Part shown: positions 2,852-63,927 of the stretch, piece after piece
Layout: the number at the start of each line of letters is the position of its first letter
Position numbering within the stretch: position 1 is the stretch's first letter
Source: Candidatus Amesbacteria bacterium
GTDB taxonomy: Bacteria > Patescibacteriota > Microgenomatia > CAZETR01 > Amesbacteraceae
NCBI GenBank assembly: GCA_963736875.1
Contig: CAVTQH010000002.1
Location: forward strand, 199,927-263,926
Length of the DNA stretch: 64,000 bases
Direction of reading: 5' to 3'
Made by a program: the position numbers and the translations under genes
Notes under the pieces: generated by a model
Databases searched by the model: none
Seen by the model: the letters and a program-made list of their open reading frames with translations, nothing else
Told to the model about the DNA's origin: nothing

Positions 2852-3013
2852 ATGATCAATCCCGAATTATTTACCAACAGGGCGGCATTTCAGGGTCTCG
2901 TCTCCCTGATTTTTGGTGTGCTCGTTCTGATGTTTCCCAAGCTCTTAAACTATCTGATCGCTTTCTATTTCATTTTCACCGGCCTGTCCGCGGTCTTACC
3001 CTATCTTCGCTGA
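2852..3013 (+). CDS. small hydrophobic membrane protein, 53 aa (MINPELFTNRAAFQGLVSLIFGVLVLMFPKLLNYLIAFYFIFTGLSAVLPYLR)
   Basis: An ATG-initiated ORF below the 60-aa track cutoff with two predicted TM helices. It overlaps a less plausible 80-aa track ORF read in another frame. Confidence 0.3.
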   Translation: MINPELFTNRAAFQGLVSLIFGVLVLMFPKLLNYLIAFYFIFTGLSAVLPYLR

Positions 3014-19562: not shown

Positions 19563-21684
19563 CTTTTTTCAAAAGCAGGGAATTGGTAATCACCGAGACT
19601 GAAGATAATGCCATAATAAGTCCCGCCAGCTCCGGTTTGAGTATCAGTCCCCAAGGAGCCAACACTCCGGCGGCAATCGGAATTCCCAAAACGTTATAAA
19701 TCAGGGCAAAAAACAAATTTTCCCTGATTTTATTCATGGTTTTTCTGGACAAATTAATAGCCGCCGTGACATCACCGGGATCATTTTTAACCAATACCAC
19801 TTCCCCGCTTTCGATTGCCACATCGGTTCCCGATCCCATGGTAATTCCCAGATCGGCAGCAGCCAGTGCCGGCGCATCATTTATCCCGTCACCTACCATG
19901 GCCACGGTTTTGCCGGCTGCCTGAAGCTTCCTGATTTCCCCGGTTTTGTTTTCCGGTAATACTTCAGCTAACACGTTTTCTATTCCCAGCCCGGAAGCTA
20001 CTGCTCTGACCGTTTTCTCGTTGTCGCCGCTTAAAAGCCACACGTCCATACCCAGGCGTTTCAGCCTTTTAATCGCATTATTGCTTTCCGCTCTCACTTT
20101 ATCCGCAACTGCGATAAGTCCCAGCATCTTTTTATCTTTGGCCAGAATAACAGCGGTCTTGCCTTCATTTTCCCATTTTCCCGTCTCTTTCCCGGTGAAT
20201 TTAATATGATTTTCCGCCATCATTTTTTTGTTTCCCAGAAAATACTTTACCCCCCTGATCCTCCCCGTCACTCCCTGCCCGGGTATGGCTGTAAAATCGT
20301 CAACATCTTCAATTTTCAATCCGCCTGATTTGGCCTTTTCGTAAATACATTTAGCCACGGGATGTTCAGAATTTCGTTCCAGACTTCCCGCCAGCTCGTA
20401 ACACCTCCGGAGAGGAAATATCGGTTACTTCCAGTTTTCCCTCGGTTAAGGTTCCGGTTTTATCAAAAACCACGGTATCGATTTTTCCCGCTTTTTCCAA
20501 AGCTTCCCCGCCTTTAATTAAAATGCCGTGAGTAGCTCCCAATCCCGTCCCTACCATAATGGCCGTGGGGGTGGCCAGCCCCAAAGCACACGGGCAGGCG
20601 ATTACTATCACCGAAACCATTGCCAGGACGGCATATGTCAATGATGCCTGCAAAACCACATACCACACTCCGAATGTAACTAAGGCAACAATTAACACCG
20701 CCGGTACAAACCAGCCCGATACCCGGTCCGCCAGATTCTGGATCGGGGCTTTTGTCTCCTGGGCTTCTTCAATTAATTTGCTGATTCGCGCTATTGTCGT
20801 TTGTTCTCCCACTCTGGTCACTCTGATTTCAATTACCCCCATCTGATTTATCGTTCCTCCGGACAACTTTGTCTCCCTCTTTTTTATCAACAGGCAGGCT
20901 TTCACCTGAAAGCATCGACTCGTTTACCGCCGTCTGTCCCCGGATTATTTCCCCGTCAATGGGGATTGTTTGCCCGGGCCTGACCAAAACCATATCCCCG
21001 ATTTTTAATTTTTCCGTTTCCGTCTCGGTTTCCTGACCGTTTCTGATCACAGTGGCGGTTTTAGGCTGAAGCTGCCCCAATTTCCTGATTGCCTCCGAGG
21101 TTTTTCCTTTGGCCCTGGCTTCCAGCCATTTGCCCAAAAGCACAAAAGTGATTAATAAAGCCGAAGTTTCAAAATAGGTAGCCTCTTTCCCCCAAATTAA
21201 ATTTATGACGCTGAATCCGTAGGCTACCGACGTGCCGATGGCGATTAGTGAATCCATATTAAAAGACTTTGACCGCAAGTGCCGACCATGCCCCCCGGTA
21301 AAATCTTCTGCCCAAAATAAACTGTACGGGAGTGGCCAGGATCCACCCCAAAAAAGGCGGAAGCATCATAATCGGTGCGGACAATATTCCCGCCCAAATA
21401 AATCTTTTTTTATACTCCCGTATTTCCGTTTCCTTCCCTATTTCTCTTTCAGCGCCGCTCCCCGCGATTTCAATTTTTGCCCCGTATCCCGCTTTTTCCA
21501 CCGCTTCCACCAGCTGTCCGGCCAAAACTTGGTTTTCGGCAATCACTCTGGCCTTTTCCGTCGCATAATTTACGTTTGCTTCCGTCACTCCGGGGATTTT
21601 TCTCAGACTTCTTTGAATCAAAAGTGCACATGATGTGCAGTCCATGCCCGTGATTTCCAGATTTACCTGCTTTTTCCCAGTCAT
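19552..21684 (-). pseudogene. copA: copper-translocating P1B-type ATPase CopA, split into four ORFs by three frameshifts
   Basis: The pieces are 21259-21684 (HMA GMDCTSCA plus TM1-2), 20829-21278 (A domain), 20366-20905 (CPC, DKTGTLT) and 19552-20358 (GDGINDAP, C-terminal TMs). Each junction needs a 1-nt shift: ...ALAVK|SFNMD, ...DKV|SGGTINQ and ...EVTD...|ELAGSLERNSEHP. Confidence 0.7.
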
Positions 21685-21950
21685 TTTTCTTCAAACACCT
21701 TCATTACTTCGGCAATCGCCCTGTCGCGCTCTTCGGGCGTTCCCTTGACGGAGTCGGCGACACAGGTCTTGAGGTGGTTTTCCAAAATCAAGGCATCCAC
21801 TTTTTTCAAAGCCGCCTGTACGGCCTGGGACTGAGTGAGAATATCGATGCAGTAATCACCTTTTTCCACCATCTCAATCACTCTCTCCAAATGTCCTCTT
21901 ACAATTTTTAACCGGTGTTCCACACCTCCTCTGCTATCCGTGGTCCTCAT
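21681..21950 (-). CDS. csoR: CsoR/RcnR-family metal-sensing repressor (copper-sensitive operon repressor)
   Basis: An 89-aa DUF156 fold carrying the C-H-C ligand set (YCIDIL..., HLKTC). It sits immediately upstream of the copA remnant with a 4-nt overlap. Confidence 0.7.
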   Translation of the reverse strand: MRTTDSRGGVEHRLKIVRGHLERVIEMVEKGDYCIDILTQSQAVQAALKKVDALILENHLKTCVADSVKGTPEERDRAIAEVMKVFEEK

Positions 21951-49629: not shown

Positions 49630-50009
49630 TTATATTATTCTTTCCAAATAGTCTGACTGATCAAACTTACCTGCGGTTAGATTGTCATTATCGATATAAA
49701 CCCATGATTTAATATAAATACCTTCAAACCTTACATTTTCTTCTACTCTATTGTAAGTCTTTGGGATTTTATTATAACCTTCACTCTTATCTAATGCGTT
49801 CAAAGCAACATCATTAATATCAAATAATAGTCCATATACCTTTGGAACACGAATTTGTAGTATCAATAGCTATATTAGCCTTACAGCGGTTATTTTAAAA
49901 AAAATTCCCAACCTTCTAGTATAGCTACTCCTAATAACCCGAAGTTATCTACACATCTAACCTTCATTTGATTTAAATCCATGTTTGAACCATAAGCAAA
50001 GTATTTCAT
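49630..50009 (-). pseudogene. AIG2/GGACT (gamma-glutamyl cyclotransferase-like) family gene, frameshifted at an A8/T8 homopolymer (~49888-49895)
   Basis: An N-terminal piece MKYFAYGSNMDLNQMKVRC... (start ~50009) and a C-terminal piece ...VYGLLFDINDVALNALDKSEGYNKIPKTYNRVEEN... (49630-49866) lie in different frames. Confidence 0.45.
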
Positions 50010-50096
50010 TTTCTGCCTACAAAATAACCCAGACGAAGTAGGAGGTAAAGGTATTTGTAGCTTTCATACTTGCTGGGCGTGAAACAATTGAAGAAG

Positions 50097-51818
50097 TTAT
50101 GTTAGTAGATTTTTTAGATTCATAACATACTGATCTTCAAATGAATAACTATACTTTTTAGCCAAACTCCAGAATGAATCTTTAATATCTTGCTCATTGC
50201 GAATCAATTTTCTAGCTTCTGATAAGGAGGTAATAATATTACCCCTTGCCCTTGATGCCACCCTACTCAAATTAGTTGGTATCGTTGTTCTTAGTTTCCA
50301 GCTTTTAACGTCCCATATTAAATTAATACATGAATCAAGGTGGGTTTCATATTCACCAAACAGATCCTCGACCGCAAATCCATCAGGTAGAGTAATTATA
50401 TAAAGGTTACTTTTGGAATTAGGTATTAAATATTTTTTAAATCCATTGCTTAATTGAGGATCACCAACGATATATTTACTATACACATCTTTTCCTTTAT
50501 CGCTATCAACAATAAAGTATGCCTTCTTTTGTACAAGATCGGGTATATTTAATAAAACATCTATTGTTCTAGTTATTTGAGCTACACCTTCAAAACAGTT
50601 GGTAATTTTAATACCAACCTGTTCGTAAACATCCTTTGTTTCAGCTCTTTTATCTTCAATAAATGTTAGTAATTTGTCCTGAGAGGTATAGAAATATACA
50701 TAAAAGTTAGAATCTCCCATTAATTTCCCAATTTCAACTACTTCCTCCTTTGTCCATAATTTCATCTTTTTGTTTTTAACAACCACATGCTCTTTTAATA
50801 GACACCACTCTATGTTATCACCCCCTAAATTACTTGAGGCTAATATTATTGGGGAGTGTGTAGAAACGACCATTTGGATGTTCTTCAGCCAAGCTTGTGA
50901 ATTAAGTTCTTGAGAGAACTTGACCATTAAATCACCATGGAGAAAGGATTCTGGTTCTTCCAACAACCATATTGGGTGATATTCTCCTCTGTGAAGTGAC
51001 CTATCACTATCAAGTAAATAATGTGTTTGATATAAGATGGTTGATTGAGCTCCCGTTCCATGTGAGGTAAGCTCAATTTCTGGAAGTGTTTGTTGCCCTT
51101 TAAAACTTATATCAGAGATTTCAACAATTTCTTTAATATTTTTAGGAAGGTCAAGAGCTGCTTCACTTCCAGGCCACATAGTTTGCAGGCTTTTAGTTAA
51201 TGAGGATGAAAGGTACGATCTGGCTTGTCTACGAAATTCCTCCCACTTTTTTTGTAACTCATTAATACCTATAGATAAATTTGGGTTTCTACCCCAATTC
51301 GCTAATAACCTTTGTCTTAATTTTTCTTGCGCATTCTTAAGTAGATCTCTACCTTCTTGGGGGTGAATGTATGTCACCCTTACGCTCATTAACAACTTTT
51401 TAACATCTGGGTCAATATCGTCGAATGAATCATAAACATAACCTAAAAAGGTATATGAAAACGAAACTTTCCTTGATGATGGTAAAAATGTGATTATTTT
51501 CTTAATATCCGCCTTCTTATTCTTGAACAACCTTATCAGGCGATTTCTTAAAACATTACTAGTTAATTCTTCTAAATTAAATGTTATTGAGATCTCAGCA
51601 TGGTTATACCCTGCCTTTTTTGCTAGGTAGGTGGTTCTGTTTAGAAAAGTTTCATCTTGATATAACGAATCGTTAAAAAAGAAGTTTAAAGCATTTAAAA
51701 TCGCCGTTTTCCCTGCATTATTTATCCCTATTAAATAAGTTCCTTGGGATAAATTTATTTGAGTCTTTGACCGAAAGCACTTAAAGTTTTCTATTTCAAG
51801 CGAATTAATTAAACTCAT
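50097..51818 (-). CDS. OLD-family-like ABC-type ATPase with C-terminal TOPRIM/DUF4435-like domain
   Basis: Walker A GINNAGKTAILNAL, signature-like SHGTGAQS, Walker B IWLLEEPESFLH, H-loop VVSTHSP. The C-terminus has FEG...(Glu) and FIVDSDKGKD (DxD) as in TOPRIM. Confidence 0.55.
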   Translation of the reverse strand: MSLINSLEIENFKCFRSKTQINLSQGTYLIGINNAGKTAILNALNFFFNDSLYQDETFLNRTTYLAKKAGYNHAEISITFNLEELTSNVLRNRLIRLFKNKKADIKKIITFLPSSRKVSFSYTFLGYVYDSFDDIDPDVKKLLMSVRVTYIHPQEGRDLLKNAQEKLRQRLLANWGRNPNLSIGINELQKKWEEFRRQARSYLSSSLTKSLQTMWPGSEAALDLPKNIKEIVEISDISFKGQQTLPEIELTSHGTGAQSTILYQTHYLLDSDRSLHRGEYHPIWLLEEPESFLHGDLMVKFSQELNSQAWLKNIQMVVSTHSPIILASSNLGGDNIEWCLLKEHVVVKNKKMKLWTKEEVVEIGKLMGDSNFYVYFYTSQDKLLTFIEDKRAETKDVYEQVGIKITNCFEGVAQITRTIDVLLNIPDLVQKKAYFIVDSDKGKDVYSKYIVGDPQLSNGFKKYLIPNSKSNLYIITLPDGFAVEDLFGEYETHLDSCINLIWDVKSWKLRTTIPTNLSRVASRARGNIITSLSEARKLIRNEQDIKDSFWSLAKKYSYSFEDQYVMNLKNLLT

Positions 51819-51870
51819 ATGTTTTTTAAATAGCGGTTATGGCCTTAAAATAGCCTTAAATTTCTTAATG

Positions 51871-52500
51871 TCAAGCTATTCTAGTACCAGTATTTACTCC
51901 GCCGTGGTGGGAGCAGGTACCAGAGCGATGTTGACTAAAACTATACGTACCATCACCACACTTTGCAGTTGCCCCCACCGGAGGAGAATTGTAATAAGTA
52001 GGTGACTGTACTTTGTTTCCGTCTACATTTATATAGTAATCTGGGCTAGATTGAGTTTGGGGAGCTATTGTTGGAACTGGTTTAAATGTTGGTCTTGGAG
52101 TCGGCTTAAGAGTGGGGGTCAATGTTGGTGTTGGAGTTGGAGCTACAGTTAGGACCGGGGAAATAATTTCACTGGCTGGACTCAAGATTTCTACTCCCCC
52201 AATTTGTCCCTCAACTTTCGGCGACTCTGTTTTTATTTGGATGTTTGATCGTGGAACAGTGGAAACGTCTACTGGGATTTTTGGACTTGACCAAAACGAT
52301 GTTGAAATCAACGCCAATAAACACAAAGCCGCGATCGACCCAATTTTTACTTTATGCTTCCAGTTATTTCTGAAAATGACATAAGCAAAGAAAAAAGGCC
52401 AGAAAATGATTGCCAAAAGTAGTTTCCACCAAGTTTTATACCAGGGTCGTGGGGCAGACACGTCCGATTGGACGGTCATTAGCCTGGATGTTAGTTCCAA
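51871..52500 (-). CDS. membrane protein with PT-rich linker and C-terminal DUF3761-like Cys domain
   Basis: TM; (PT)n linker; YINVDGNKV...ATAKCGDGTYSFSQHRSGTCSHHGGV. Confidence 0.4.
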   Translation of the reverse strand: MELTSRLMTVQSDVSAPRPWYKTWWKLLLAIIFWPFFFAYVIFRNNWKHKVKIGSIAALCLLALISTSFWSSPKIPVDVSTVPRSNIQIKTESPKVEGQIGGVEILSPASEIISPVLTVAPTPTPTLTPTLKPTPRPTFKPVPTIAPQTQSSPDYYINVDGNKVQSPTYYNSPPVGATAKCGDGTYSFSQHRSGTCSHHGGVNTGTRIA

Positions 52501-52554
52501 GATGACCTATAGTCAAGTTTTACCGGGCGTGATCACATTATTTTAGACGACTTT

Positions 52555-53010
52555 TCAAGGTTGTGTTTCATACATAGCAACCTCACATTTTTTAGCAGTA
52601 AGACTTGTGCCACCTCTTGAATATGGTAAATCATGATCGAAATGTAGGTTCTGATTTGACTTACATATTACACATTTTCCTTGATCTCTTTTCCAAACCT
52701 CCTTTTTTACTTCCGATGGGATTAGTCTAGTATGAGAAAGTTGTACTTTCTGAATATCTCCCGAGATAGATTGGTTACCTGATAGTTTTAAAATAAAACG
52801 GAATACATTTCTATTACTATTGTTTTTCACTGTGTAATCAATAAGTTCGAAGTATCCCTTTGATGACCAAACTCCATTCATTATTTTTTCATAAACTTTC
52901 ACAATCTCAGGGTTGGCATCTTTTTCCTTGTATCCTTTTACTGCACGAATAAATAATCCATTCTGTGTTAATTTCCCTGAAGGTAATATTTCTGGCTGAT
53001 CGTCTAATTT
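52555..53010 (-). CDS. HNH endonuclease (start codon uncertain)
   Basis: CVICKSNQNLHFDHDLPYSRGG is an HNH motif. The frame is open back to ~53010 with no ATG. The upstream 64-aa ORF 53032-53226 is in the same frame, separated by TAA and TGA. Confidence 0.55.
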   Translation of the reverse strand, partial: KLDDQPEILPSGKLTQNGLFIRAVKGYKEKDANPEIVKVYEKIMNGVWSSKGYFELIDYTVKNNSNRNVFRFILKLSGNQSISGDIQKVQLSHTRLIPSEVKKEVWKRDQGKCVICKSNQNLHFDHDLPYSRGGTSLTAKKCEVAMYETQP

Positions 53011-53428
53011 TGGATTATGTCATATGCTTTTTTAGATATATCGTGTCCTTCGTATTCTATCGGTAATTCCATCGGAATATATTTTATCTTTATATGGGGC
53101 ATTTGATCTTTGGGACATCAAAATTAAAGAGTAACGAGGATTTAGTCGGTAATTCATTCCTCGTTGAAGAGTTTGAACATTTTCTAAATCACACATTTCC
53201 CTGTAAGAAAATATTTGATCAAGCACAGGTCAATTCCTTTTTAAACATAATTTGTATTTATTGGCTATTTAATTTACACTCTCCCCAAAAGAAAGCAATT
53301 GATTTGGGTCGAAAATATTATTTCCTCTTATTGATTCGTCTATTTCTCTTATTTTTTTATAACCTAAGAATTTAATAGCCTCGTTTAATTTTAAACACGG
53401 ATTGGAAAACGTTGGCCTTTTTAGCTCA

Positions 53429-54382
53429 TCAAACACTTTCCTTTTTCTTTCTTCGGAAGAGACAATAAAAAGTGGGTAACTTGAATTTGGGTTTCCTGAC
53501 TCTTAAATCTGATAACCTCAATATTCCTGAGTAAATCGAAGTCGTATGTTCAATTTCGAAGGCTGATTTAATTGAATATGGTCCATATTTCCATACAACA
53601 TCAATATTTTTAATTGTCGGAGGTACATCAAGTGATTCATGAAATTCTGATAATACGTGTTCTTTAAATCTATTACCTTGAAAGGACTTTCCTTGGTCGT
53701 TAGAGGGAACCCATATGTCAAATTTTGCCAATTCACCTAGCCTTATTAACCTCCATTGTATCTCAACATGTTCAGTAGTCGATTGTTCAATGTGTTCGTC
53801 AAGTTCTGTTATTGCCTTTGTTTGTTGTGGTATTTCTCTGATTTTTTCTCCCTTTTCTATTGTCTTTAGTGTACCTAATAAATCCCCATATCTGCTTAAG
53901 AAATATTTAGTTGCATCTTCATTTATCATTGTTAATCCTTGTGGAGAATAATTCTCCTTATATCCAAATAGTGGATTAATTTTTGATAGCGGTACCGAGA
54001 CTCTCTCTTCGTTAAGAATAAAATATATTAATTCCCAAGTTTCGCCCTCTGGAGTTTCATGCCAAAAATACTTAGCTAATTCTTTGCTTCTGACTTTAGC
54101 CGCTATCTCGCCAACAAATCTTATGTAACCATTATTATAAATAAGTACTACGTCTCCAGACTCCATTTTTTCCCATCGAGTTTCATTTAAAGGTCCTGGA
54201 ACAGCTCCCCAGACAATAAAGGGTAAGTTATGGTAGATATTTTCTAGATTACTGATCTCTTTTTGTGGAAGATAATTTCTTATTTCGTTAAGATTTCTTT
54301 TGTTTTGAATTGTATCCTCAAAATGACGTTGAGCCTCGTAGTTACCACCAGCAACTACAATAAATACTTTTCTAATCTTCAT
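53429..54382 (-). CDS. EVE/PUA-like domain fused to a restriction-endonuclease-like (PD-(D/E)XK-like) C-terminal domain
   Basis: The N-terminus reads PFIVWGAVPG...MESGDVVLIYNNGYIRFVGEIAAKV, EVE-like. The C-terminus reads ...IDVVWKYGP...FEIEHTTS.... A 2-nt gap separates it from the MazG-like gene. Confidence 0.35.
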   Translation of the reverse strand: MKIRKVFIVVAGGNYEAQRHFEDTIQNKRNLNEIRNYLPQKEISNLENIYHNLPFIVWGAVPGPLNETRWEKMESGDVVLIYNNGYIRFVGEIAAKVRSKELAKYFWHETPEGETWELIYFILNEERVSVPLSKINPLFGYKENYSPQGLTMINEDATKYFLSRYGDLLGTLKTIEKGEKIREIPQQTKAITELDEHIEQSTTEHVEIQWRLIRLGELAKFDIWVPSNDQGKSFQGNRFKEHVLSEFHESLDVPPTIKNIDVVWKYGPYSIKSAFEIEHTTSIYSGILRLSDLRVRKPKFKLPTFYCLFRRKKKESV

Positions 54383-54384
54383 AT

Positions 54385-54855
54385 TTAAAGCTGATTATAC
54401 TTTGTGTGTTTACCCTTTGTCTTTTCAATAGGGTACCTTAGATTGTTCTTTGCTATTTTCTTATCAAGAGCTGCCAATATATCAATATTTAAATCATTAC
54501 TCATAAGTAATACCCAATACAACACGTCAGCTAATTCTTCGCCTATTTCATTTTTATGATTCTTAACATGTTCTTCGATCTCTTCTTTGTTCTTCCATTG
54601 GAAGTGTTCCATTACTTCTGCTGCTTCTAGAATCAGAGATAGAGATGCATCTTTAGGATTATGAAACTGCTTCCAATCCCTAGCATTCCGGAAATTGATA
54701 ATTCTCTGAGTTAAACTTTTTATTGTTTTCACTTTTAGCCTGATTTTACTCCTTTTTTCCCTTTTTTCGCGGATTTGATAGGATATAGATAGTGAAATTA
54801 ATAAGCGTACGGAAATTGGGATTTTATAAAAGCAAGTTCTTTGTCTTTTTCGCAT
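54385..54855 (-). CDS. MazG-like nucleotide pyrophosphohydrolase (all-alpha NTP-PPase, YpjD-like)
   Basis: RDWKQFHNPKDASLSLILEAAEVMEHFQWK...IGEELADVLYWVLLMSNDLNIDILAAL. The real start is probably ~54760. Confidence 0.55.
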   Translation of the reverse strand: MRKRQRTCFYKIPISVRLLISLSISYQIREKREKRSKIRLKVKTIKSLTQRIINFRNARDWKQFHNPKDASLSLILEAAEVMEHFQWKNKEEIEEHVKNHKNEIGEELADVLYWVLLMSNDLNIDILAALDKKIAKNNLRYPIEKTKGKHTKYNQL

Positions 54856-55436
54856 CTGCTTCTATTTTGGTAGTGCTGTTGTTTGTATTAAATAATTTAT
54901 TTATTTCCCTGGCTGGAACCTTACTTTTCATAGTACTTTTTAAAAAATACAAACCCTATGAAAAAGGTTTGTTGGGTGAAACGGACATCAGCGATGAATT
55001 GAGGAAACTTCCACCTGAATACCATTTCTTTTCCGATATAGAAACTGACCGGAGTAAGGCCAATATTGATAAAGTGCTTATCGGACCAACCGGGGTATGG
55101 GTAATAGAAGTTAAAAATATGCAGGGTAAGTTTACTTTTGATGGCCAGAAACTGTTAAAAAATGGTTATCCGATGCCAAAAGATATCCTTAGCCAAACCT
55201 GGAAGGAATCCTATACCATCCGCGATTTAATCAAAGAAAGATTAAATTTTGGTGTTACTGTCCAGCCAGTACTGGTTTTTTCCAGTTCCAAGGCATACTT
55301 TAAGTTTGGAATGAATAAGGTGAAGGGGATTTATATTATCGGGAAGAAATGGTTGAACCAGTTAGTGAATGAAAAAACAACCCAACCTCTAGACCCCCAA
55401 ACCATCGATAAGATTTCAGCTATCTTCAAATTTTAA
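54792..55436 (+). CDS. NERD-domain (nuclease-related domain) membrane protein
   Basis: Two N-terminal TMs, then GLLGETDISDELRKLPPEYHFFSDIE...IDKVLIGPTGVWVIEVKN. Confidence 0.55.
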   Translation: MKLISVRKLGFYKSKFFVFFASASILVVLLFVLNNLFISLAGTLLFIVLFKKYKPYEKGLLGETDISDELRKLPPEYHFFSDIETDRSKANIDKVLIGPTGVWVIEVKNMQGKFTFDGQKLLKNGYPMPKDILSQTWKESYTIRDLIKERLNFGVTVQPVLVFSSSKAYFKFGMNKVKGIYIIGKKWLNQLVNEKTTQPLDPQTIDKISAIFKF

Positions 55437-55535: not shown

Positions 55536-55886
55536 TTATTTTTTGTCCAAAAAAGCAGCCATTGCGGAAACCACCCGCGCTTGCCAATCCAGAATATGGG
55601 CTTCCTGTATCTGCTCCCCTTCGGTGGTAATTGAAGTAACTGATTTTTTAACTACTTCCGCTTCCCAGTCCACCTCCCGCAAATCGTCCATTGGTCCTCT
55701 TGACGGGGGCATTTCCGTATTGCGCTTCTGGAACATGTACAGATTCGGGCATTCAACTTCATAAGTCTTGGCTGTTTTACCGTCGTCCGCAAATTGTTCC
55801 CTGGCCATTTCCGCCAATTTTCCCAAGGCAAAGCATTTACGCTCTATTCCTACCACCGGGCACCCTTCACATCTTACTACCGGCAT
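55536..55886 (-). CDS. small Cys-containing protein, 116 aa (CEGCP...C...C)
   Basis: ATG preceded by GAGGAG. It lies 9 nt downstream of the 58-aa gene. Confidence 0.35.
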   Translation of the reverse strand: MPVVRCEGCPVVGIERKCFALGKLAEMAREQFADDGKTAKTYEVECPNLYMFQKRNTEMPPSRGPMDDLREVDWEAEVVKKSVTSITTEGEQIQEAHILDWQARVVSAMAAFLDKK

Positions 55887-55895
55887 ATCCGCATT

Positions 55896-56072
55896 TTACT
55901 CCTCGTTAAATCTTGGTGTGGAAGGGCACCGGCCGGCGGATCCGCAGGTACCGTCATTTTTTACCAAAGTGCAGGCGGGATCAACCGGGCACTTCGGCTT
56001 TAACTCTTTAACTTTATCTGCATCTTTTCCGCTTGGTTGGATTTGTGGCTTGGTTTCGGTCTTTACTGCCAT
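55896..56072 (-). CDS. Cys-rich small protein, 58 aa (MAVKTETKPQIQPSGKDADKVKELKPKCPVDPACTLVKNDGTCGSAGRCPSTPRFNEE)
   Basis: ATG to TAA, six Cys in the C-terminal 30 aa. Not in the ORF track. Confidence 0.3.
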   Translation of the reverse strand: MAVKTETKPQIQPSGKDADKVKELKPKCPVDPACTLVKNDGTCGSAGRCPSTPRFNEE

Positions 56073-56135
56073 TTGCGGATTATAGGATAAGTTGTTCGTG
56101 ATGTAAACAGTTTTGCGTCTCCGGGGGTGCGGGGT

Positions 56136-57476
56136 TTAATTTACGGGGATGGTGGAAGGAATGTAATAGACATTGCCCGTCAGCTGTCCGTTTAAGACGT
56201 TGGCCGATGAATCGGTGGTGTCGGAATCAAAATGATAAAGCATCATGGTATCGGCATCGGGGGTAAACGGCAGTTTGGAAGGAGTGAAATTTCCGGTGTA
56301 TCTGGCGGTATCGGAAACCCTCACTTCATCGATGACTCCCTGGAAGAAATCATAAAACGGCAGGTTTTTATCAAACAACCCGGCTCCGATGTGCAGACTC
56401 CGGCCGTTATTGCAGACAATCATGCCTACGTTGTAGGAATTTAATTTGACTCCGTTTTCGTAAATATGCAGGTTGCCGTTTTGTAAAACCCCGGCGACAT
56501 GTTTCCAGGAATTAAACTCTCCCGGGGTAACTGTGATGTAATTGCAGATGTTCCAGGGGTTCCAGTTACAGTTACCGGAATAAACCACCGTTTGGTTGCA
56601 GCCGTTGTTCGAACTTTGGACATCAAAGTAATAAATATACGAAACATTTGCTCCGTTGGGTATGGCATCCATTGATAGCCGGTAAGTATTATCGACAATG
56701 CGGTATCCGTAGCCGGCTTTTGCCGGGGCAATCGGCTTTATCCAGGCCTCAACCGTAACATTATCAGTCGGCAGATTCATCTTGGAAGAATACGGCACTT
56801 CCATATACTGCAGCACCGGGGTGTAAGACGGCGGGTTAAGGCCGGCAACTTTGCCTCCGAAAACCGCGGCTTCGCCCCAGGGGTAAGCCGGGGTGGGAGT
56901 GGGTGCCGGAGTGGAAGTGGGTGCCGGAGTCGGGGTGGGAACAATTAAACAGTCTTCTGATTTCATTAAAGGCCGGCACCAATAGCAGTCAGGGGAAATA
57001 ATATGGGTACCGGGACAGCCGGGATCATTGACTCCGAATTTATTGTATCTGGTTTCGGCATCAAGATTTTCGGTCTTGGATTTGGGGTTATAGCACAGAA
57101 CCGCCGAATTACCGCACCTGGTAATATGGATTTCTTTAAGTTCCGGCGTGGAAAGATATATTTCTTCAAATTTCGGGTCCTTGATCAGTTCGTGGATGCA
57201 GTCGGGAATATCCGTCAGAGGAACACCTGCGTTTAATTCATTCCGGCAGTCGGGATTCACATCCCAGGGGAGTTTTTTATGACTGCTGTAATACCCGATA
57301 GCGGAATTAATCACATCCTTGATTACGACTTTGGAACTGGCATCCGCGGCCTTGGAAATCTGTTCGGCGGGATTAACGGCAAAAAGAACCGTGGACAAAA
57401 TGACTGTCAGAATACCCATGACCATTAAAAGCTCAATCAGGGTAAAACCGGTGGCAATTTTATACCTCGTAACCAC
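56136..57476 (-). CDS. type IV pilin/pseudopilin-like protein with large lectin/LamG-like C-terminal domain
   Basis: A class III signal with prepilin cleavage/methylation motif G|FTLIELLMV, a (TP)n linker, and a Cys-rich jelly-roll-like C-terminus. Confidence 0.6.
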   Translation of the reverse strand: MVTRYKIATGFTLIELLMVMGILTVILSTVLFAVNPAEQISKAADASSKVVIKDVINSAIGYYSSHKKLPWDVNPDCRNELNAGVPLTDIPDCIHELIKDPKFEEIYLSTPELKEIHITRCGNSAVLCYNPKSKTENLDAETRYNKFGVNDPGCPGTHIISPDCYWCRPLMKSEDCLIVPTPTPAPTSTPAPTPTPAYPWGEAAVFGGKVAGLNPPSYTPVLQYMEVPYSSKMNLPTDNVTVEAWIKPIAPAKAGYGYRIVDNTYRLSMDAIPNGANVSYIYYFDVQSSNNGCNQTVVYSGNCNWNPWNICNYITVTPGEFNSWKHVAGVLQNGNLHIYENGVKLNSYNVGMIVCNNGRSLHIGAGLFDKNLPFYDFFQGVIDEVRVSDTARYTGNFTPSKLPFTPDADTMMLYHFDSDTTDSSANVLNGQLTGNVYYIPSTIPVN

Positions 57477-57508
57477 TTTGATTAATTATAGATGAAGGAA
57501 GTACTTAT

Positions 57509-60500
57509 TTGCTTCCTGGCAACCAAATCCGGATAGTGATACTATTAATAGTAGGATTTATGAAAAGTGAATATTCTGCTTTGGCAGAGCTTCTGATAGC
57601 AAAAGGAGTATCCGATACGGAAACTGTGTCCCGGATAAAAGATGCGGTTCTGGAAAAATTCCGCGACGAATATCCCAAAAGCCCCGCGGACGCTGCGGTC
57701 CTGGTCAATGAAAAGTCCGGTGATGTGATGATTTTTTCGGGTAACGAAAACATCACCCCGCCGAAATTCGGGGAAAAAGCCGCAGCCGTTGCCCGGCAGG
57801 TAATGATCGAAATACTGGCCCAGGCGGAAGGAAGCGGGAAGGGAAAAGCCAAACCTGTAACGGGGAGTCAGGTTCCGGGCCCCTGGACTTCAATCTTGGC
57901 CAACCTTTTTTTCTGGGGATACAACATCTATTTTGCCTTATTTAACCTGGGGCTGGTGTTTTCATTTTTCACCCCCGGATCCCTGACCGCCTTTATAGAT
58001 AACCTGAAAAATCTGGGAATTTTTAAACTGTTTTTTGCCCTGATCCTTATAGCTACCCCTTTGGCTTCCATGTACCTTACTCTCAGAAGAAAACTTTATA
58101 CCGCCCCCGGACGGCTTTTAAGGCTGTTTTTCCTGTTTGAACTGCCGGTGGTATTTGCGTGCCTTCTGCCCCTTGCTATGCTGGGGCAGACCACGCCGTT
58201 TTCAATTCTGTTTTCCCTGGCGGTTCTGGCCCTGCCGGGAATAATTTACCTGTACACCGCGGATATCAAATTTTCCGGCATTTGGCTGAAGGCCGTCTTC
58301 TTTATCCAGGAATTTGTGTTTATTATTGCGGCTTATTTGGGCCTGTTGCTGGCTTTTGTCGTCCCGGTAATTCTGGGAGGAGCCGCCAAATCGCTTTTTG
58401 ATTTCGGTCACTATTCATACGGTTACGGTTATTCCGTGTTTCAGCCTGAAATGGTAATCGGATTTTTCCTTAGTATGGGTTTAAACACCATCATCATGCT
58501 TCTGATTACGGGAGTGCTTTCCCTCCCATATCTGATACTGATGTTTTTAGGCAGAGCGGTTAATAAAACCCGCGCCGTTTTAACAGAGGTTTTGGGTAAA
58601 GAGCAGCTCTTTACCCTGGAAGCTGTTTTTGCAGTAATTATTCTCACTCTGGGAGCAATTTCAGCCTACCAACCGACAGGAAGTAAACTTCTGGATCCTT
58701 TAAGAAATATTTCCACGAGCACCACTTTTGAAGCCAAAGAGCAGATTGCCAAAGACCTGACACCGCAGGAGAAAAAACTAAAAACCCTGGTCGCTAACAT
58801 CAGCCGGGCCAGGAGCCGCTACCTGACGACCAAGGATGACAAAACAATACAACGTGCATATGAAGATGTTTTTGATATGAATGATACTTTAGCCGGAGCG
58901 GTGAACAGCATGTTCCTGACAGCAGCCTACCCGCTGGTTTACCAGGGAGAAAGCCGGGACAGTTATCAGCTCGGGCAGAATTTCTATTACATTTTCGGGT
59001 ATTCTCCTTTCGAAAGCACTGCCAAAACCAAAACTTCCATTGCCCCCGTCCCGGCATCTGCCAATAATGTGCTTTTAAACTACCGCAAAGTTACGGTCAC
59101 CCCGGACAGCGGCGGACTGACGGCCAAAATTGCCATTGAGGAGGAATACACCAATTCAACGAGCCAGCAGCAGGAAGTGCTATACGAATTTACTCTGCCC
59201 CGGGGAGCGGTCATGACCGGCCTGAAACTGGGACCGGATCTGGAATTTGAGGGCATCATTGCCCCCAAAGGCGCCGCCCAGAAAACTTACGAACAGCAGC
59301 TGCAGGTTCGAAGGGACCCGGCTTTATTGGAAGAAACCGGACCGCGGCAATACCGCCTGAGAGTATTTCCTGTCCCGGCCAAAAATGATTACGCCACTCT
59401 CAAAGGCCGGCGGCAAAAAGTCAGATTTGAATATGCCGCAGCGGCCACCCCGGAGGGCTTCCCTCTTCCGGAAATCACCCGCAAAACCAATGTCTATACC
59501 ACGGGAGCCAGCCAGATAATGCTTGTCACCGATCAGGGCAATAAACCGCTCTCGGAAAAAGATACTTATATCCCCCTGACCACTCTGGCCAAAGCGGATT
59601 TTTGTCAGGGCACGGGTGCTGCAGCCGGGACAATGACGGATCTTCTGGCCAACCAGCAGGATTTTAAATCCGTGGTCTGTGCCGACCCGGGAGGATTGCT
59701 GGGGAGTATTTCCGGATTAAAAATTGCCGTATTTTACGACGTCTCGGCGGAAAACAGAACCAAAAACCAGGAAGCGCAATTAAAGATTCTCGGTGAAAGC
59801 AAAAAATTCCTGACCAACAATAAAGTTGACCTTTACAAGTACAGCGATTTGCCGGGACAGGCGGTCGGCCTGACGGCTGATAATTTTGCCGAAGAGTCCA
59901 AGGTTACGTACTTCGGGAAAAGCAATGCTCTGGCGGCTTTGAACACTTTCAGCCAAAAATATGACCTGGTGCTGATCCTTACAGGCAATGCCGCATTTGC
60001 CCAGACGGAAATCCTGCCGTTTGCGTATCCGACGCAGGTATATCTTGTGCATCCGCAATTGCCGCCCGCCTACACCATGAAACTGGCATCCAAACTGCTG
60101 CAAACCGGCGGTGACGCCACCGGTTCTCTATCGGAAGCTCTGAAACTGTATGTGCTGAACCGGGCTATGGAAAGCAAATACGCAAAAGGCGGATACCTGG
60201 TCAACGATTATGTCGGGGCGACTTTCCCCGTTCAGGGAACGGACTCGCTTTTGGGAGTGGATAAAAACGGGGGAGCCGCGGCCGCTCTGGTAAACAAGGG
60301 TATCTACAGGACATCCCTGACCGGAAAACTGGGCGACATTTCGGGAGACGTCAGTATTCTGGATAAACTGCATGCATTTGCCCGGGAAGCCCAAATAGTT
60401 ACCGTCTATTCTTCACTCATTTCCCTCGTGAACGCCCAGCAGCTGCAGACACTGGAACAACTGCAGCAGCAGTACAACCGGTACGAAGACCGGACTTTGA

Positions 60501-60829
60501 TAGAAAACAGAACGATTACAACACCTCCCATGGAATTGAACCAGATGGAGTTGCCAACTACCAGATTCGGCTCCATCGGCAGTTCCCTGTTTAACGTGGA
60601 TATGATACAAACCGATTTGAAAAGTGTCAGCGGCGGCGGAGGTAATTTCGGGGGAATCAGCGGAGCCGGGGTACTTTCTAACCCGAGTGCAAGTTTTGGC
60701 GTCAGTGGCGGCGGTATGGGACTGGGAAGTTTGGTGTCAGGCCTGCCCCTGTTTCTGATAGCTAATGCCCTGCTTCTCGCATTTGGTCTGGGATTCTATA
60801 TTGTCAGGCTGCTGCGCCACAGGAAGTAA
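57509..60829 (+). CDS. giant polytopic membrane protein (1106 aa) with Gly-rich C-terminal anchor
   Basis: A ~110-aa soluble N-terminus, ~10 TMs, a ~650-aa extracytoplasmic domain, and a GGGGNFGGISG...GGGMGLGSLVSGLPLFLIANALLLAFGLGFYIVRLLRHRK tail. Confidence 0.4.
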   Translation: MLPGNQIRIVILLIVGFMKSEYSALAELLIAKGVSDTETVSRIKDAVLEKFRDEYPKSPADAAVLVNEKSGDVMIFSGNENITPPKFGEKAAAVARQVMIEILAQAEGSGKGKAKPVTGSQVPGPWTSILANLFFWGYNIYFALFNLGLVFSFFTPGSLTAFIDNLKNLGIFKLFFALILIATPLASMYLTLRRKLYTAPGRLLRLFFLFELPVVFACLLPLAMLGQTTPFSILFSLAVLALPGIIYLYTADIKFSGIWLKAVFFIQEFVFIIAAYLGLLLAFVVPVILGGAAKSLFDFGHYSYGYGYSVFQPEMVIGFFLSMGLNTIIMLLITGVLSLPYLILMFLGRAVNKTRAVLTEVLGKEQLFTLEAVFAVIILTLGAISAYQPTGSKLLDPLRNISTSTTFEAKEQIAKDLTPQEKKLKTLVANISRARSRYLTTKDDKTIQRAYEDVFDMNDTLAGAVNSMFLTAAYPLVYQGESRDSYQLGQNFYYIFGYSPFESTAKTKTSIAPVPASANNVLLNYRKVTVTPDSGGLTAKIAIEEEYTNSTSQQQEVLYEFTLPRGAVMTGLKLGPDLEFEGIIAPKGAAQKTYEQQLQVRRDPALLEETGPRQYRLRVFPVPAKNDYATLKGRRQKVRFEYAAAATPEGFPLPEITRKTNVYTTGASQIMLVTDQGNKPLSEKDTYIPLTTLAKADFCQGTGAAAGTMTDLLANQQDFKSVVCADPGGLLGSISGLKIAVFYDVSAENRTKNQEAQLKILGESKKFLTNNKVDLYKYSDLPGQAVGLTADNFAEESKVTYFGKSNALAALNTFSQKYDLVLILTGNAAFAQTEILPFAYPTQVYLVHPQLPPAYTMKLASKLLQTGGDATGSLSEALKLYVLNRAMESKYAKGGYLVNDYVGATFPVQGTDSLLGVDKNGGAAAALVNKGIYRTSLTGKLGDISGDVSILDKLHAFAREAQIVTVYSSLISLVNAQQLQTLEQLQQQYNRYEDRTLIENRTITTPPMELNQMELPTTRFGSIGSSLFNVDMIQTDLKSVSGGGGNFGGISGAGVLSNPSASFGVSGGGMGLGSLVSGLPLFLIANALLLAFGLGFYIVRLLRHRK

Positions 60830-60837
60830 ACTATTAA

Positions 60838-61271
60838 TGGAAAAAAGGGGAGTACTCACCAAAATATTGACGGTTACCGGAGCTTTTCTGGTATGGTTTC
60901 CGGTTCTGGCACCGTTTATTTTCTCTGCCGGCTCGCTTATGGGAGACGGCATATTTAGGTTTGACTTCCTTATGCCCGCCGAACTTTTTCCTCTGATACT
61001 TATCGGCGGCGGATTACTTTTCTGGGCATCCCGGCGGGCAGGTTCACAGCAGAAGTTCATCGGTTGGAGTCTGGTTCTGACCGTGGTTTTTCTGGTCAGT
61101 TGCCAGGGGTTAGCTATGATAACGGGGTTAGCGTCAGGTGAAACCGAACCCGTGGGACTTCCCTTAATAGCCGTTACTTATTTGCTGGCTGGTTATATTC
61201 TGGGGGCGGTGGCAGTGGGGGTGGGGGGATTACTTCTGCTTCGTGATCTGTTTATATTCTCACGAAGATAG
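60838..61271 (+). CDS. small polytopic membrane protein (~144 aa)
   Basis: Four TMs. It starts right after the stop of the giant gene (track ORF 60765-61271). Confidence 0.3.
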
Positions 61272-61367
61272 AATAACTGACCATACAGGCATTCCAGTAA
61301 ATAGTATCGCAGCTGGATCCAGGCAACGACCAGGTAGTCGAGAAACGCATTTGCGAATGCCGAATGG

Positions 61368-62549
61368 TCACTTCTTTAATACGGATTTATAGTGCAAGGC
61401 CAAAGCTCCCAGGCCTGTCCACAAAACTACCAGTGAGATGAAAAATCCCAAGAACGGAATCATTTTAAGTAAATAAATCGCTGTCATTCCCGCGGCGAAA
61501 ACTGCATAAACCGAAGGTTTTTTCCATCCGGATTTTTCTGACAGCCAGATACCCAAAGATAAACCCGCCACAATTTTAGCCAGATACATATTTATCAGAA
61601 ATACCAGAATTACCAAACCGGCCAGAGGTATTCCTACTATGGTAAGCGCCAGAATTATCAGTGCCGGAATAATAGCTATGCAAATCAAAAATCCTGTTCC
61701 CAGACTGGTCCAAAATGAATTGGTTACCCGTTTTGCCGACTCGGAAAATGTTTTATTAAACAGTTTAAGGCAAATAAGTCCGACAATCAGCACCCCGATC
61801 AGGGAGAAAATATTTGCCGCCAGTCTGAACGTCGCAAAAGCTTTCGGCAAATCTTTCCTGGCAAGTTCCAAATTATTCTTACCGGTGAACTTATTCTCAG
61901 TCTTATTAATCGTTCCTCCGATAGTTGCCGAATCCGAGATATTGATTTCTGTTGTCCTGTCCCCCAAAGCGTAGTATAAATCTTTGGCGATTTTTGCATT
62001 CGGACCGATCGAAATGTTTCCGGCTCCGATGCGGACTTCACCGCCCACTGCCGAGTTGACGTCCGCGTTTCCCGCGCCCGCAAAAATATTCCTTTTGACC
62101 GGGGAATTAATCGTGATGCTTCCGGTTCCCGCCAGTATCGAACCGCTGATTGATGAATCCGCGTCAATACTGACATTTCCCGCTCCCACCAGAAGCGAGT
62201 CGCCGATTATTGCATTACTTACAATCACATTCCCGGCTCCGACATAAGCATTCTGGCTTACCCGCCCGCTCAAATACACAATTCCGCCGCCCGCGTGCAG
62301 GGACCCGTTGATGATGCCGTTGATGCGGATGGTTTCTGCCCCCGCGTACACATCACCATTTACCGTTCCGAATATTTCCACCGTTTGCGCGGCAACCAAC
62401 AGATCATCATTGATTATTTCACCCTTGGCAATTGTTACCACTCCCTTTTCCACGGAAATTACTTTAGCCGCGGCTTCGGTCACGGGAAACGTTAGCAATG
62501 CCAAACCAAAAACCAGTAAAGCCGGTAAGAACTTACTGATAAATTTCAC
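61368..62549 (-). CDS. bactofilin-like (DUF583 beta-helical repeat) protein with signal peptide and C-terminal TM domain
   Basis: Repeats GTVNGDVYAGAETIRINGIINGSLHAGGGIVYLSGRV...GAGNVIV..., then 4-5 TMs. Confidence 0.5.
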   Translation of the reverse strand: MKFISKFLPALLVFGLALLTFPVTEAAAKVISVEKGVVTIAKGEIINDDLLVAAQTVEIFGTVNGDVYAGAETIRINGIINGSLHAGGGIVYLSGRVSQNAYVGAGNVIVSNAIIGDSLLVGAGNVSIDADSSISGSILAGTGSITINSPVKRNIFAGAGNADVNSAVGGEVRIGAGNISIGPNAKIAKDLYYALGDRTTEINISDSATIGGTINKTENKFTGKNNLELARKDLPKAFATFRLAANIFSLIGVLIVGLICLKLFNKTFSESAKRVTNSFWTSLGTGFLICIAIIPALIILALTIVGIPLAGLVILVFLINMYLAKIVAGLSLGIWLSEKSGWKKPSVYAVFAAGMTAIYLLKMIPFLGFFISLVVLWTGLGALALHYKSVLKK

Positions 62550-63165: not shown

Positions 63166-63927
63166 ATGAGCAGCTACTACAATCCCCAAAGGACCAAAAA
63201 TTTGTACGATCCCGAAACCAAAGAAAGGTTTCGTTTAAGCCGGTCAAAAATTGATCTTTATATCAATTGTCCCCGCTGTTTTTATCTGGACCGGAAACTC
63301 GGGGTGGCCCAGCCGCCGGGTTATCCGTTTTCTTTAAACTCCGCGGTGGACAAGCTTCTCAAAAAAGAATTTGATATCCACCGGGCTCACGGCACTACCC
63401 ACCCCCTGATGAAAACTTATGGCATAGACGCGATCCCCCTGGCCCACGAAAAAATCAACGAGTGGCGGGATTCATTAAGAGGGGGAATTACCGTAAATAT
63501 CAAAGGAACAAATGTGGTGGTGACCGGGGGAGTGGATGATGTCTGGGTTACTCCGTCCGGGGAATATCTGATAGTGGACTACAAAGCCACTTCCAAAGAG
63601 GAGGAAGTTACTCTGGATGCCGACTGGCAGATAGGATACAAGCGCCAGATGGAAATATACCAGTGGCTTTTCCGGCAAAATGGTTTCCGGGTGTCAACGA
63701 CCGGAATATTTGTCTACTGCAACGGCAACACCGATAAGGAAGCCTTTGACGGCAGGCTGGAGTTTGATATCAAGATTATTCCGTACGAAGGTGACGATTC
63801 CTGGGTGGAAAACACCATTAAAGATGCCATTACCTGTTTAAAGCAGGACAAACTGCCCGATCCGGGTCCCGATTGCGACTTCTGCAAATACCGGGAAGCA
63901 GCCTCAAAAGTCGAGGGTAATACCTGA
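63166..63927 (+). CDS. Cas4/RecB-like PD-(D/E)XK nuclease family protein (DUF83-like) with 4-Cys cluster
   Basis: N-terminal CPRC, GGVDDVWV, IVDYKAT (D-x-K) and C-terminal CDFC. No CRISPR array nearby. Confidence 0.55.
   Translation: MSSYYNPQRTKNLYDPETKERFRLSRSKIDLYINCPRCFYLDRKLGVAQPPGYPFSLNSAVDKLLKKEFDIHRAHGTTHPLMKTYGIDAIPLAHEKINEWRDSLRGGITVNIKGTNVVVTGGVDDVWVTPSGEYLIVDYKATSKEEEVTLDADWQIGYKRQMEIYQWLFRQNGFRVSTTGIFVYCNGNTDKEAFDGRLEFDIKIIPYEGDDSWVENTIKDAITCLKQDKLPDPGPDCDFCKYREAASKVEGNT

Follow-up and report, generated by a model that had tools for sequence, protein, structure and literature searches.

Introduction

Modular type IV pilins are reported to be widespread, CPR phyla included, and to number more than 1,200 (PMC8179133). 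Among the minor pilins of this class is PilC of Streptococcus sanguinis, which carries a lectin module of the concanavalin A-like kind (PMC9934059). The 446-aa product of a gene in the 64,000-nucleotide stretch of DNA analysed here (the window) resembles PilC in its class III signal, pilin module and grafted jelly roll of the ConA-like/LamG superfamily, and by analogy may act as an adhesin on pili. It differs from PilC and other modular pilins in that detectable homology to pilins of solved structure is confined to the N-terminal helix (best match Geopilin domain 1, E 0.012), in its large pilin module (~170 aa) with eight invariant Cys, in a TP-rich linker that takes the place of an Ig-like module and in a gene that stands alone with no pil locus nearby; glycan binding in this case is a prediction. 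More closely related are P0020 (HVZ11703.1, a prepilin-type N-terminal cleavage/methylation domain-containing protein) and P0066 (an NHL/6-bladed beta-propeller protein), which are 47-57% identical to the 446-aa pilin over the first ~178 residues, including all Cys, but differ from it in the C-terminal module, which is of unknown fold or an NHL propeller as opposed to LamG.

Two further likenesses concern genes next to the pilin gene. Small Cys4 metal-binding proteins (zinc-ribbon-like, Fe-S) share with the family of a 116-aa protein an invariant CxxC and two other invariant Cys within the first 46 residues, but classical zinc ribbons have a Cys spacing other than the 2, 8, 27 of this family. 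In leaderless genes of the 'group C' bacteria defined with GeneMarkS-2 (PMC6028130), the start codon is preceded at 6-8 nt by a Pribnow box, and TATAAT-like boxes 6-8 nt before the pilin gene, a 58-aa ORF, the 116-aa gene and many other genes of the window resemble that pattern, although group C consists mostly of Actinobacteria and Deinococcus-Thermus and leaderless starts are here deduced from sequence alone.

Results

Organization of the locus

The pilin gene and the two small ORFs downstream of it were found at the positions given in an initial annotation and, as described there, are co-directional, all lying on the minus strand (Table 1). The spacers, which had been put at 9-60 nt, are 9 nt between the 58-aa and 116-aa ORFs, within that range, and 63 nt between the pilin gene and the 58-aa ORF, outside it. 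The divergent neighbour of the pilin gene encodes a VIT-domain membrane protein and belongs to the inserted block described below. No gene for type IV pilus machinery was detected among 27 window ORFs scanned with Pfam. The names of homologous proteins assign the DNA to Patescibacteria.

Table 1. Features of the pilin locus, with positions numbered from the first nucleotide of the window
Feature	Position	Strand	Remarks
Modular type IV pilin gene	56136..57476	minus	446 aa, GTG start; pilin module, TP linker and LamG-like module
Class III (prepilin) signal	57375..57476	minus	Leader MVTRYKIATG, predicted cleavage after Gly10, F+1, E+5, hydrophobic helix FTLIELLMVMGILTVILSTVLFAV
Pilin module, aa 1-178	56943..57476	minus	8 invariant Cys in orthologue alignment
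(T/S/A-P)n linker PTPTPAPTSTPAPTPTPA, aa 180-197	56886..56939	minus	Length differs among orthologues
LamG/concanavalin A-like jelly-roll module, aa 198-446	56139..56885	minus	PF13385 and fold matches
58-aa orphan ORF, candidate coding status	55896..56072	minus	4 Cys; in non-conserved spacer
116-aa conserved 4-Cys protein gene	55536..55886	minus	Predicted cytoplasmic; unnamed family
VIT-domain membrane protein gene	57509..60829	plus	1106 aa, TIGR02921 family; Pfam and NCBIfam
TATAAT box	57485..57490	minus	8 nt before pilin GTG; leaderless-type start signal
Sigma-70-like near-consensus promoter TTTACA-17-TATAAT (11/12)	56079..56107	minus	Ends 6 nt before 58-aa ATG
Promoter-like TCCACA-18-TAAAAT	55893..55922	minus	Ends 6 nt before 116-aa ATG
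~4.9-kb block (58-aa spacer, pilin and VIT genes)	55904..60836		Missing between 116-aa and 145-aa membrane-protein genes in relatives

The modular pilin

The N-terminus of the 446-aa protein, MVTRYKIATG/FTLIE, consists of a short charged leader ending in Gly, with Phe at +1 and Glu at +5, and leads into a helix with a hydropathy peak of 2.67 at residues 13-27 (Kyte-Doolittle 15-residue mean). The prepilin N-terminal domain model TIGR02532 matched residues 9-30 with a score of 18.5 (cutoff 16.3), while Pfam N_methyl, at 18.9, fell just under its cutoff of 21.2. The prepilin N-terminus and the (TP)n linker of the initial annotation were thus both evident in the sequence, and its proposal of a lectin-type C-terminal domain was borne out by a match of Laminin_G_3 (PF13385) to residues 233-392 (56301-56780; E 4.8e-15; score 56.4 bits, cutoff 27.6), which places this domain among LamG/ConA-like modules. 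Foldseek searches with a low-confidence AF2 model of the module (pLDDT 52.7) returned LamG, pentraxin and BoNT-HCN folds with E values from 1e-7 to 1e-4. The protein contains 12 Cys in all and the codon score of its gene (0.151) is gene-like.

Eight full-length orthologues, 53-73% identical to the pilin, were identified and PF13385 was present in 8/8. In other relatives only the N-terminal part was retained. Thus, P0020 is 53% identical to the pilin over residues 1-178 and unrelated to it at the C-terminus, and in P0066, from Levybacteria, an NHL beta-propeller replaces LamG behind the common pilin module. A search of GTDB genomes with a pilin profile recovered no orthologue, all matches being remote LamG domains of unrelated phyla. 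These sequence features identify the 446-aa protein as a genuine modular type IV pilin, predicted to be incorporated into pili, and the alignments indicate that head domains are swapped on one pilin module within a family of Patescibacteria. Ligand binding by the LamG module is likewise a prediction from its fold class, as is lectin activity.

The 116-aa protein

The CxxC reported for the 116-aa protein is present at positions 6-9 and forms part of a cluster, C6-x2-C9, C18 and C46, encoded in 55734-55886. All four Cys are invariant in 6/6 family members, down to 40% identity, the other members being P0002, P0003, P0004, P0075 and P0076; these six were the only ones found among about 15 billion proteins. 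With dN/dS values of 0.19-0.34, a gene-like codon score (0.173) and four Cys invariant across six members, the ORF is taken to be a real gene under purifying selection. The invariance of the four Cys also makes metal binding plausible, and they most likely coordinate a metal, either Zn or an Fe-S cluster, as predicted from the alignment.

No family match was obtained for this protein in Pfam (E up to 10), NCBIfam, PHROG or PADLOC, and a PDB profile search with the family gave a single chance match (E 0.43). Searches of GTDB genomes with the family profile and exact-sequence look-ups of the ORF, P0001 and P0004 returned nothing, metagenomes yielded only the L005 contig, already known, and viral contigs contained no member. 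A 426-aa repeat protein (P0077, E 1e-4) was rejected as a relative, being a translated tandem repeat. An AF2 model of the 116-aa protein (pLDDT 46.5) was judged unusable.

The 58-aa ORF

Four Cys, not the six clustered Cys initially reported, were counted in the 58-aa ORF, at positions 28, 34, 43 and 49 and so within 22 residues (CPxxPAC-x8-C-x5-C). Its omission from the ORF track, pointed out in the initial annotation, agrees with its absence, exact sequence included, from protein collections. Searches of about 15 billion proteins, of metagenome contigs and of viral contigs found no homologue, and there was no match in Pfam (E up to 10), NCBIfam, PHROG or PADLOC. The codon score of the ORF (-0.048) is that of a spurious ORF, below 98.8% of true-gene segments, and is the lowest among small ORFs with a leaderless signal. 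Of shuffled versions of the 249-nt spacer, 11.7% contained a sense ORF of 58 codons or more, and the length of the ORF by itself therefore carries no significance. At least four Cys were present in 6% of spurious 45-90-aa ORFs of the window, and the rate seen in spurious ORFs makes the Cys richness of the 58-aa ORF about 50 times likelier than does the rate seen in real genes. Conservation, on which the proposal for the small ORFs had been made to depend, was lacking for the 58-aa ORF and present for the 116-aa family.

Maximum hydropathy values (Kyte-Doolittle 15-residue mean) of 0.17 for the 58-aa and 1.03 for the 116-aa protein revealed no signal peptide or hydrophobic segment in either; thus, export of the Sec or pilin type is not indicated. 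Together with the lack of recurrent synteny with the pilin gene, this result speaks against the suggestion that the small proteins are secreted or are pilus accessory factors.

Several other assignments of the region were rejected. A SCIFF/RiPP precursor would be expected to have six Cys in ~45 residues as opposed to the four seen in the 58-aa ORF, no TIGR or NCBIfam match was obtained and no radical-SAM or other maturase was noted, the neighbours being the pilin, the VIT protein, NERD and MazG-like genes. Read-through extension of the pilin into the 58-aa frame, which is the same frame with the pilin TAA between, was discounted because pilin orthologues share the C-terminus IPSTIPVN. Antisense ORFs across the region of the two small ORFs differ in length from one relative to another, and their scores are non-coding.

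Promoter-like boxes

The -10 box before the 116-aa gene is kept in relatives, where it reads TAAAAT-N6-ATG (L005), TATAAT-N6-ATG (L001) and TAGAAT-N8-ATG (L032). Within the window, all four promoter sites that match the consensus at 11/12 positions precede an ORF-opening ATG at N6-8, as do 5 of the 14 sites that match at 10/12 or better, compared with about 0.24 expected per shuffled window. Similarly, 12 ORFs of at least 50 codons begin 5-9 nt after a TATAAT (0.7 expected), and 10 of these 12 are clear genes. From this pattern, leaderless starts with TATAAT 6-8 nt before the start codon seem widespread in the genome. The 58-aa ORF, by virtue of its promoter-like signal, is probably transcribed. 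From the pilin stop to the 116-aa gene no minus-strand terminator was predicted, and read-through co-transcription of the two genes may occur.

Comparison with related loci

In four independent loci that carry pilin orthologues of 51-73% identity (L006, L008, L010 and L031), a convergent gene begins 30-40 nt after the pilin stop, and neither Cys-rich small ORFs nor tblastn matches to the 58-aa or 116-aa proteins were found there. Conversely, no pilin gene was found beside members of the 116-aa family in L001-L004, L005 or L032. Thus, the synteny check called for by the initial annotation, of pilin with small Cys proteins in other Patescibacteria, gave no instance in four pilin-orthologue and four 116-aa-family contexts.

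Homology to relatives (tblastx and blastn against L001-L005) ends at about 55903 and restarts at about 60834, the 58-aa stop codon lying within the conserved stretch that precedes the 116-aa gene. In L001, the 116-aa-family gene and the 145-aa membrane-protein gene are divergent and only 42 nt apart. The comparison suggests that a ~4.9-kb block interrupts an otherwise 42-nt divergent intergenic region; the related contigs were few and mostly short, and the choice between insertion here and deletion there rests on two relatives.

Discussion

The three ORFs are probably independent units juxtaposed by lineage-specific rearrangement and not a dedicated pilus operon. Their independence is indicated by the absence of shared synteny on either side, by the break in homology and by the presence before each of its own -10 box at N6-8. 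The functional pilus operon of the initial annotation is hard to reconcile with these same results. In a true operon, the three genes would be co-transcribed and the small proteins would act as accessory factors, chaperones or redox helpers of the 12-Cys pilin. Such an arrangement would be in keeping with co-directional genes separated by short spacers, with no predicted terminator between them, and with the oxidative folding that a 12-Cys pilin would require. We nevertheless give it almost no credence because the synteny was seen in no comparable locus, on the pilin side or the 116-aa side, because adjacency appears to have arisen by local rearrangement, because each gene is preceded by a promoter-like box of its own, and because small proteins that lack a signal peptide or membrane segment would be cytoplasmic whereas the Cys of the pilin would be extracytoplasmic.

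Opinion on the 58-aa ORF turns on how its start signal is weighed against its sequence. The ORF could be a genuine lineage-specific leaderless micro-protein, young or horizontally acquired and perhaps metal-binding, driven by TTTACA-17-TATAAT and possibly sharing a transcript with the 116-aa gene. Exactly 6 nt separate the 11/12 promoter from the ATG, an arrangement like that of bona fide genes of the window. Sites of this quality open ORFs far more often than expected, most ORFs with a TATAAT so placed are clear genes, and four Cys are gathered in 22 residues. Set against these points are the lack of any homologue, the spurious-like codon score, the ease with which its length and Cys content arise by chance and the absence of the region from the closest relatives, and this reading is in our view doubtful. 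Translation as a young orphan micro-protein, taken by itself, is a reasonable though less favoured outcome, and on balance the ORF appears rather to be fortuitous, inside a transcript that reads into the 116-aa gene. It is unlikely that the 249-nt spacer instead regulates the 116-aa gene as a non-coding RNA (5' leader or small RNA), the 58-aa frame being incidental. The strong promoter, which precedes the 116-aa ATG by 186 nt without an intervening terminator, and the non-coding-like codon usage of the frame would fit such an element, but Rfam gave no match at E values up to 1, the stability of the fold does not exceed that of shuffled sequences (z = -0.77), the spacer is not conserved, the -10 box of the 116-aa gene in relatives lies at N6 and leaves hardly any leader, and the gene retains that box here as well. 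Highly unlikely, finally, is a reading in which the 58-aa ORF encodes a newborn leaderless micro-protein, specific to the lineage and created or captured at the rearrangement junction, that is co-transcribed with the 116-aa gene and forms a Cys-rich module with it. If true, the pair would constitute a small metal- or redox-active module recently wired beside a 12-Cys adhesive pilin, and the promoter of the newborn micro-protein would rank among the strongest of the window.

With the three ORFs regarded as juxtaposed independent units, the main practical value of the analysis is negative, namely a caution against carrying the 'pilin plus Cys-peptide operon' forward as a system. The apparently wide use of leaderless starts affects the calling of small ORFs, a point of use to annotators. 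The 116-aa 4-Cys protein, which defines a very rare family, would be a small cytoplasmic protein expressed from its own leaderless-type promoter, with a function unrelated to the pilin.

The LamG-headed pilin of Patescibacteria is real and of an already described architecture. In the mechanism proposed for it, prepilin peptidase would cut the protein after Gly10, the hydrophobic N-terminal helix would hold the subunit in the type IV filament, and the disulfide-rich pilin module and flexible TP linker would present the LamG/ConA-like module outward, where it would bind a surface ligand, glycan or protein, most likely on a host cell or substrate in the case of an episymbiotic Patescibacterium. 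This pilin is one more modular type IV pilin, from a family in which interchangeable heads (LamG, NHL propeller and unknown folds) are carried on a conserved disulfide-rich module. Such swapping of heads is not a new principle, but it bears on host recognition by Patescibacteria episymbionts.

The pilin

The prepilin N-terminus reported for the 446-aa protein in the initial annotation was borne out by a class III signal (MVTRYKIATG/FTLIELLMVMGILTVILSTVLFAV), whose charged leader ends in Gly (-1) and precedes a hydrophobic helix, with Phe at +1 and Glu at +5; it scored above the cutoff of TIGR02532 and narrowly under that of Pfam N_methyl. Residues 180-197 read PTPTPAPTSTPAPTPTPA. The AF2 model (nine orthologues), which was of only moderate confidence (pLDDT 52.7), had a beta sandwich behind a long N-terminal helix, and Foldseek matched it to jelly rolls of the LamG type, i.e., the LG domain of PAPP-A, pentraxins, the HCN domain of BoNT and laminin LG. 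PF13385 (Laminin_G_3) was found in 8/8 full-length orthologues, which align at 53-73% identity and share ten conserved Cys, eight of them within the pilin module.

Only the first 178 or so residues were common to further proteins of Patescibacteria/Levybacteria (53% identity to pilin P0020), and the C-terminal modules of proteins with this same module differed, that of P0066 being an NHL beta-propeller. Given one pilin module with varied C-terminal modules, the protein belongs, as judged from its sequence, to a family of modular pilins whose heads are interchangeable. Such an architecture is already known: a published catalogue lists over 1,200 modular pilins, CPR proteins included, under 264 architectures (PMC8179133), and PilC of S. 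sanguinis is a modular pilin with a ConA-like module that is a demonstrated lectin (PMC9934059). The window pilin resembles PilC in being modular and in its ConA-like/LamG-type module, whereas lectin activity is demonstrated for PilC and predicted here; "lectin-tipped" is a reasonable analogy for a putative binding module. Solved pilins were without detectable homology to the window pilin beyond the N-terminal helix.

The 116-aa protein family

The exact sequence of the 116-aa protein was present in NCBI and ENA (P0001, on a 441-kb contig), and close homologues were 72-79% identical. A full HMMER scan, run over 1.84 billion representatives, added two distant homologues, P0075 and P0076, at 40% identity to the window protein. 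Residues C6, C9, C18 and C46 were invariant in all six family sequences, as were Y42, V44, E45 and a DD-x-R motif. Pairwise dN/dS values were 0.19-0.34, and the codon-usage score (0.173) was typical for genes of the window. No relative was found in Pfam, NCBIfam, PHROG, PADLOC or PDB, the protein contained no hydrophobic segment and its AF2 model was unusable. The protein is a member of a rare uncharacterised family, for which we infer a putative cytoplasmic Cys4 metal site. One homologue from outside the window (P0004, NCBI/ENA) diverged abruptly after residues 52 and 83 in a frameshift-like manner, reflecting either pseudogenization or an error in assembly.

Features of the window
Feature	Position	Strand	Remarks
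RNase P RNA	2563-2827	+	
53-aa ORF	2852-3013	+	leaderless-type promoter signal; codon score 0.172 (gene-like)
89-aa ORF	21681-21950	-	leaderless-type promoter signal; codon score 0.254 (gene-like)
Low-GC island	50000-55436		GC about 30-35%
OLD/GajA-family ATPase	50097-51818		in low-GC island
DUF3761 protein			in low-GC island
317-aa protein	53429-54382		weak type II restriction-enzyme match; phrog_14240 match
MazG-like protein	54385-54855		in low-GC island
NERD-domain protein	54792-55436		in low-GC island
116-aa ORF	55886..55536	-	
58-aa ORF	56072..55896	-	
Pilin ORF, 446 aa	57476..56136	-	GTG start
VIT-domain multi-pass membrane protein, 1106 aa	57509-60829	+	TIGR02921, 233.9 bits (cutoff 200)
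145-aa membrane-protein gene	60837-61271	+	
Long hairpin, 96 nt	61272-61367		imperfect
393-aa gene	61368-62549	-	
PD-(D/E)XK gene	63166-63927		

Status of the 58-aa ORF

Four Cys were counted in the 58-aa ORF rather than the six initially reported. No homologue was found in a protein search of 5.8 billion clusters or in back-translated scans of metagenome and viral contigs, and no family match in Pfam, NCBIfam, PHROG or PADLOC. The codon score (-0.048) was in the range of spurious ORFs (mean -0.029) and lower than that of 98.8% of true 58-codon segments; among small ORFs with the same start signal it was the lowest. An ORF as long was obtained from 11.7% of shuffled spacers, and the Cys frequency of spurious ORFs in the window is three times that of its real genes (2.2% vs 0.7%). 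These results, like the Cys count, argue against a gene. For a gene speaks the promoter TTTACA-17-TATAAT (11/12 matches), which ends 6 nt before the ATG; leaderless genes are recognised by a Pribnow box at a distance of 6-8 nt from their start codon (PMC6028130). All four 11/12 sites in the window precede an ORF-opening ATG at this spacing, as do five of the 14 sites with at least 10/12 matches (0.24 expected), and ORFs of 50 codons or more follow 12 of the 37 exact TATAAT boxes (0.7 expected), 10 of these 12 ORFs being obvious genes. The spacer holding the ORF had no match in Rfam and its fold stability was not unusual. On balance, we lean slightly against translation of this ORF.

Synteny and promoters

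The three ORFs are co-directional, with gaps of 63 nt (pilin/58-aa) and 9 nt (58-aa/116-aa), and had been taken as a pilin operon that also encodes Cys-rich peptides. The test for conserved synteny of pilin and small Cys proteins, suggested in the initial annotation, failed from both sides. In the loci of pilin orthologues (L006, 73% identity; L008/L009, 54%; L010 and L031, 51% each), a convergent gene for a DEAD helicase, PNPase or Peptidase_S51 lies 30-40 nt past the pilin stop, and neither small protein was found in any pilin locus when both were run by tblastn against the full set of 32 loci. Conversely, the pilin was absent from all contexts of the 116-aa family (L001-L005 and L032). The divergent neighbour of this family is a 145-aa membrane protein in L001-L004, where a GrpB gene lies convergently, and an unrelated gene in L005, while the most distant member (P0076; L032, 225-3260) lies in a tight co-directional run of HicB-like antitoxin, PD-(D/E)XK nuclease, 116-aa homologue, Trypsin_2 and NUDIX genes. 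The PD-(D/E)XK gene of the window, approximately 7 kb away, is barely similar to the L032 nuclease.

A -10 box stands before each start: TATAAT at N8 for the pilin, and for the 116-aa gene TAAAAT at N6 in the window and L005, TATAAT at N6 in L001 and TAGAAT at N8 in L032. With synteny failing and -10 boxes of their own, the operon found no support, and the units look, from these start signals, independently promoted. Some read-through may occur, since terminator prediction gave none on the minus strand between the ORFs.

Other features of the window

Shine-Dalgarno motifs were rare in the window and a TATAAT-like box lay 5-9 nt before the start codon of approximately 20 of 58 long ORFs (e.g., 48102+, 42183-, 36844+, 62561-, 63152+ and 47961-); thus, leaderless expression appears common in this Patescibacteria genome. 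By sequence reading, the 89-aa ORF resembles a metal-sensing repressor of the CsoR/RcnR type. The 53-aa ORF, by its look a small membrane peptide, directly follows an RNase P RNA for which the archaeal Rfam model RF00373 was best in clan (88.8 bits; gathering score 84) in a genome otherwise bacterial-looking. The hairpin (TGACCATACAGGCATTCC...GGAATGCCGAATGGTCA) separates the convergent 145-aa and 393-aa genes and may act as a terminator in both directions or represent a small mobile element of palindromic sequence. It had no further copy in the window; a copy in L005/L011 (645-756), 79% identical with an extra GC-rich tip, lies approximately 75 nt downstream of the L005 116-aa homologue. Fold z-scores of the two copies were -2.6 and -4.3.

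A probable rearrangement

Homology with L001 and L005 covered the 116-aa gene and approximately 17 nt ahead of its ATG, broke at about window position 55903 and resumed at about 60834, taking in the 145-aa gene and then the 393-aa gene. The 145-aa and 116-aa genes of L001 point away from each other with 42 nt between them, which indicates that a block of approximately 4.9 kb sits inside this intergenic region in the window genome. The block comprises the 58-aa spacer, the pilin and, diverging from the pilin across only 32 nt, the VIT-domain gene, the product of which belongs to a PEP-CTERM-associated integral membrane family (TIGR02921). The 145-aa gene, solitary in relatives, lies 7 nt past the end of the latter gene. 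Of the 58-aa ORF, the conserved part holds just the stop codon and the novel part everything else.

GC of the three-ORF region is approximately 48%, and roughly 33% over 50000-55400 in the bordering low-GC island, which adjoins the 116-aa gene and looks like a defence or mobile island. Proteins encoded in this adjoining region are OLD/GajA-like, restriction-enzyme-like, MazG-like and NERD-domain proteins. The most likely reading, which we hold with fair confidence, is that a modular adhesive pilin that stands alone, a conserved cytoplasmic Cys4 protein unrelated to it and a junction ORF whose status is uncertain would have been put side by side by a rearrangement at the border of a variable region rich in defence genes.
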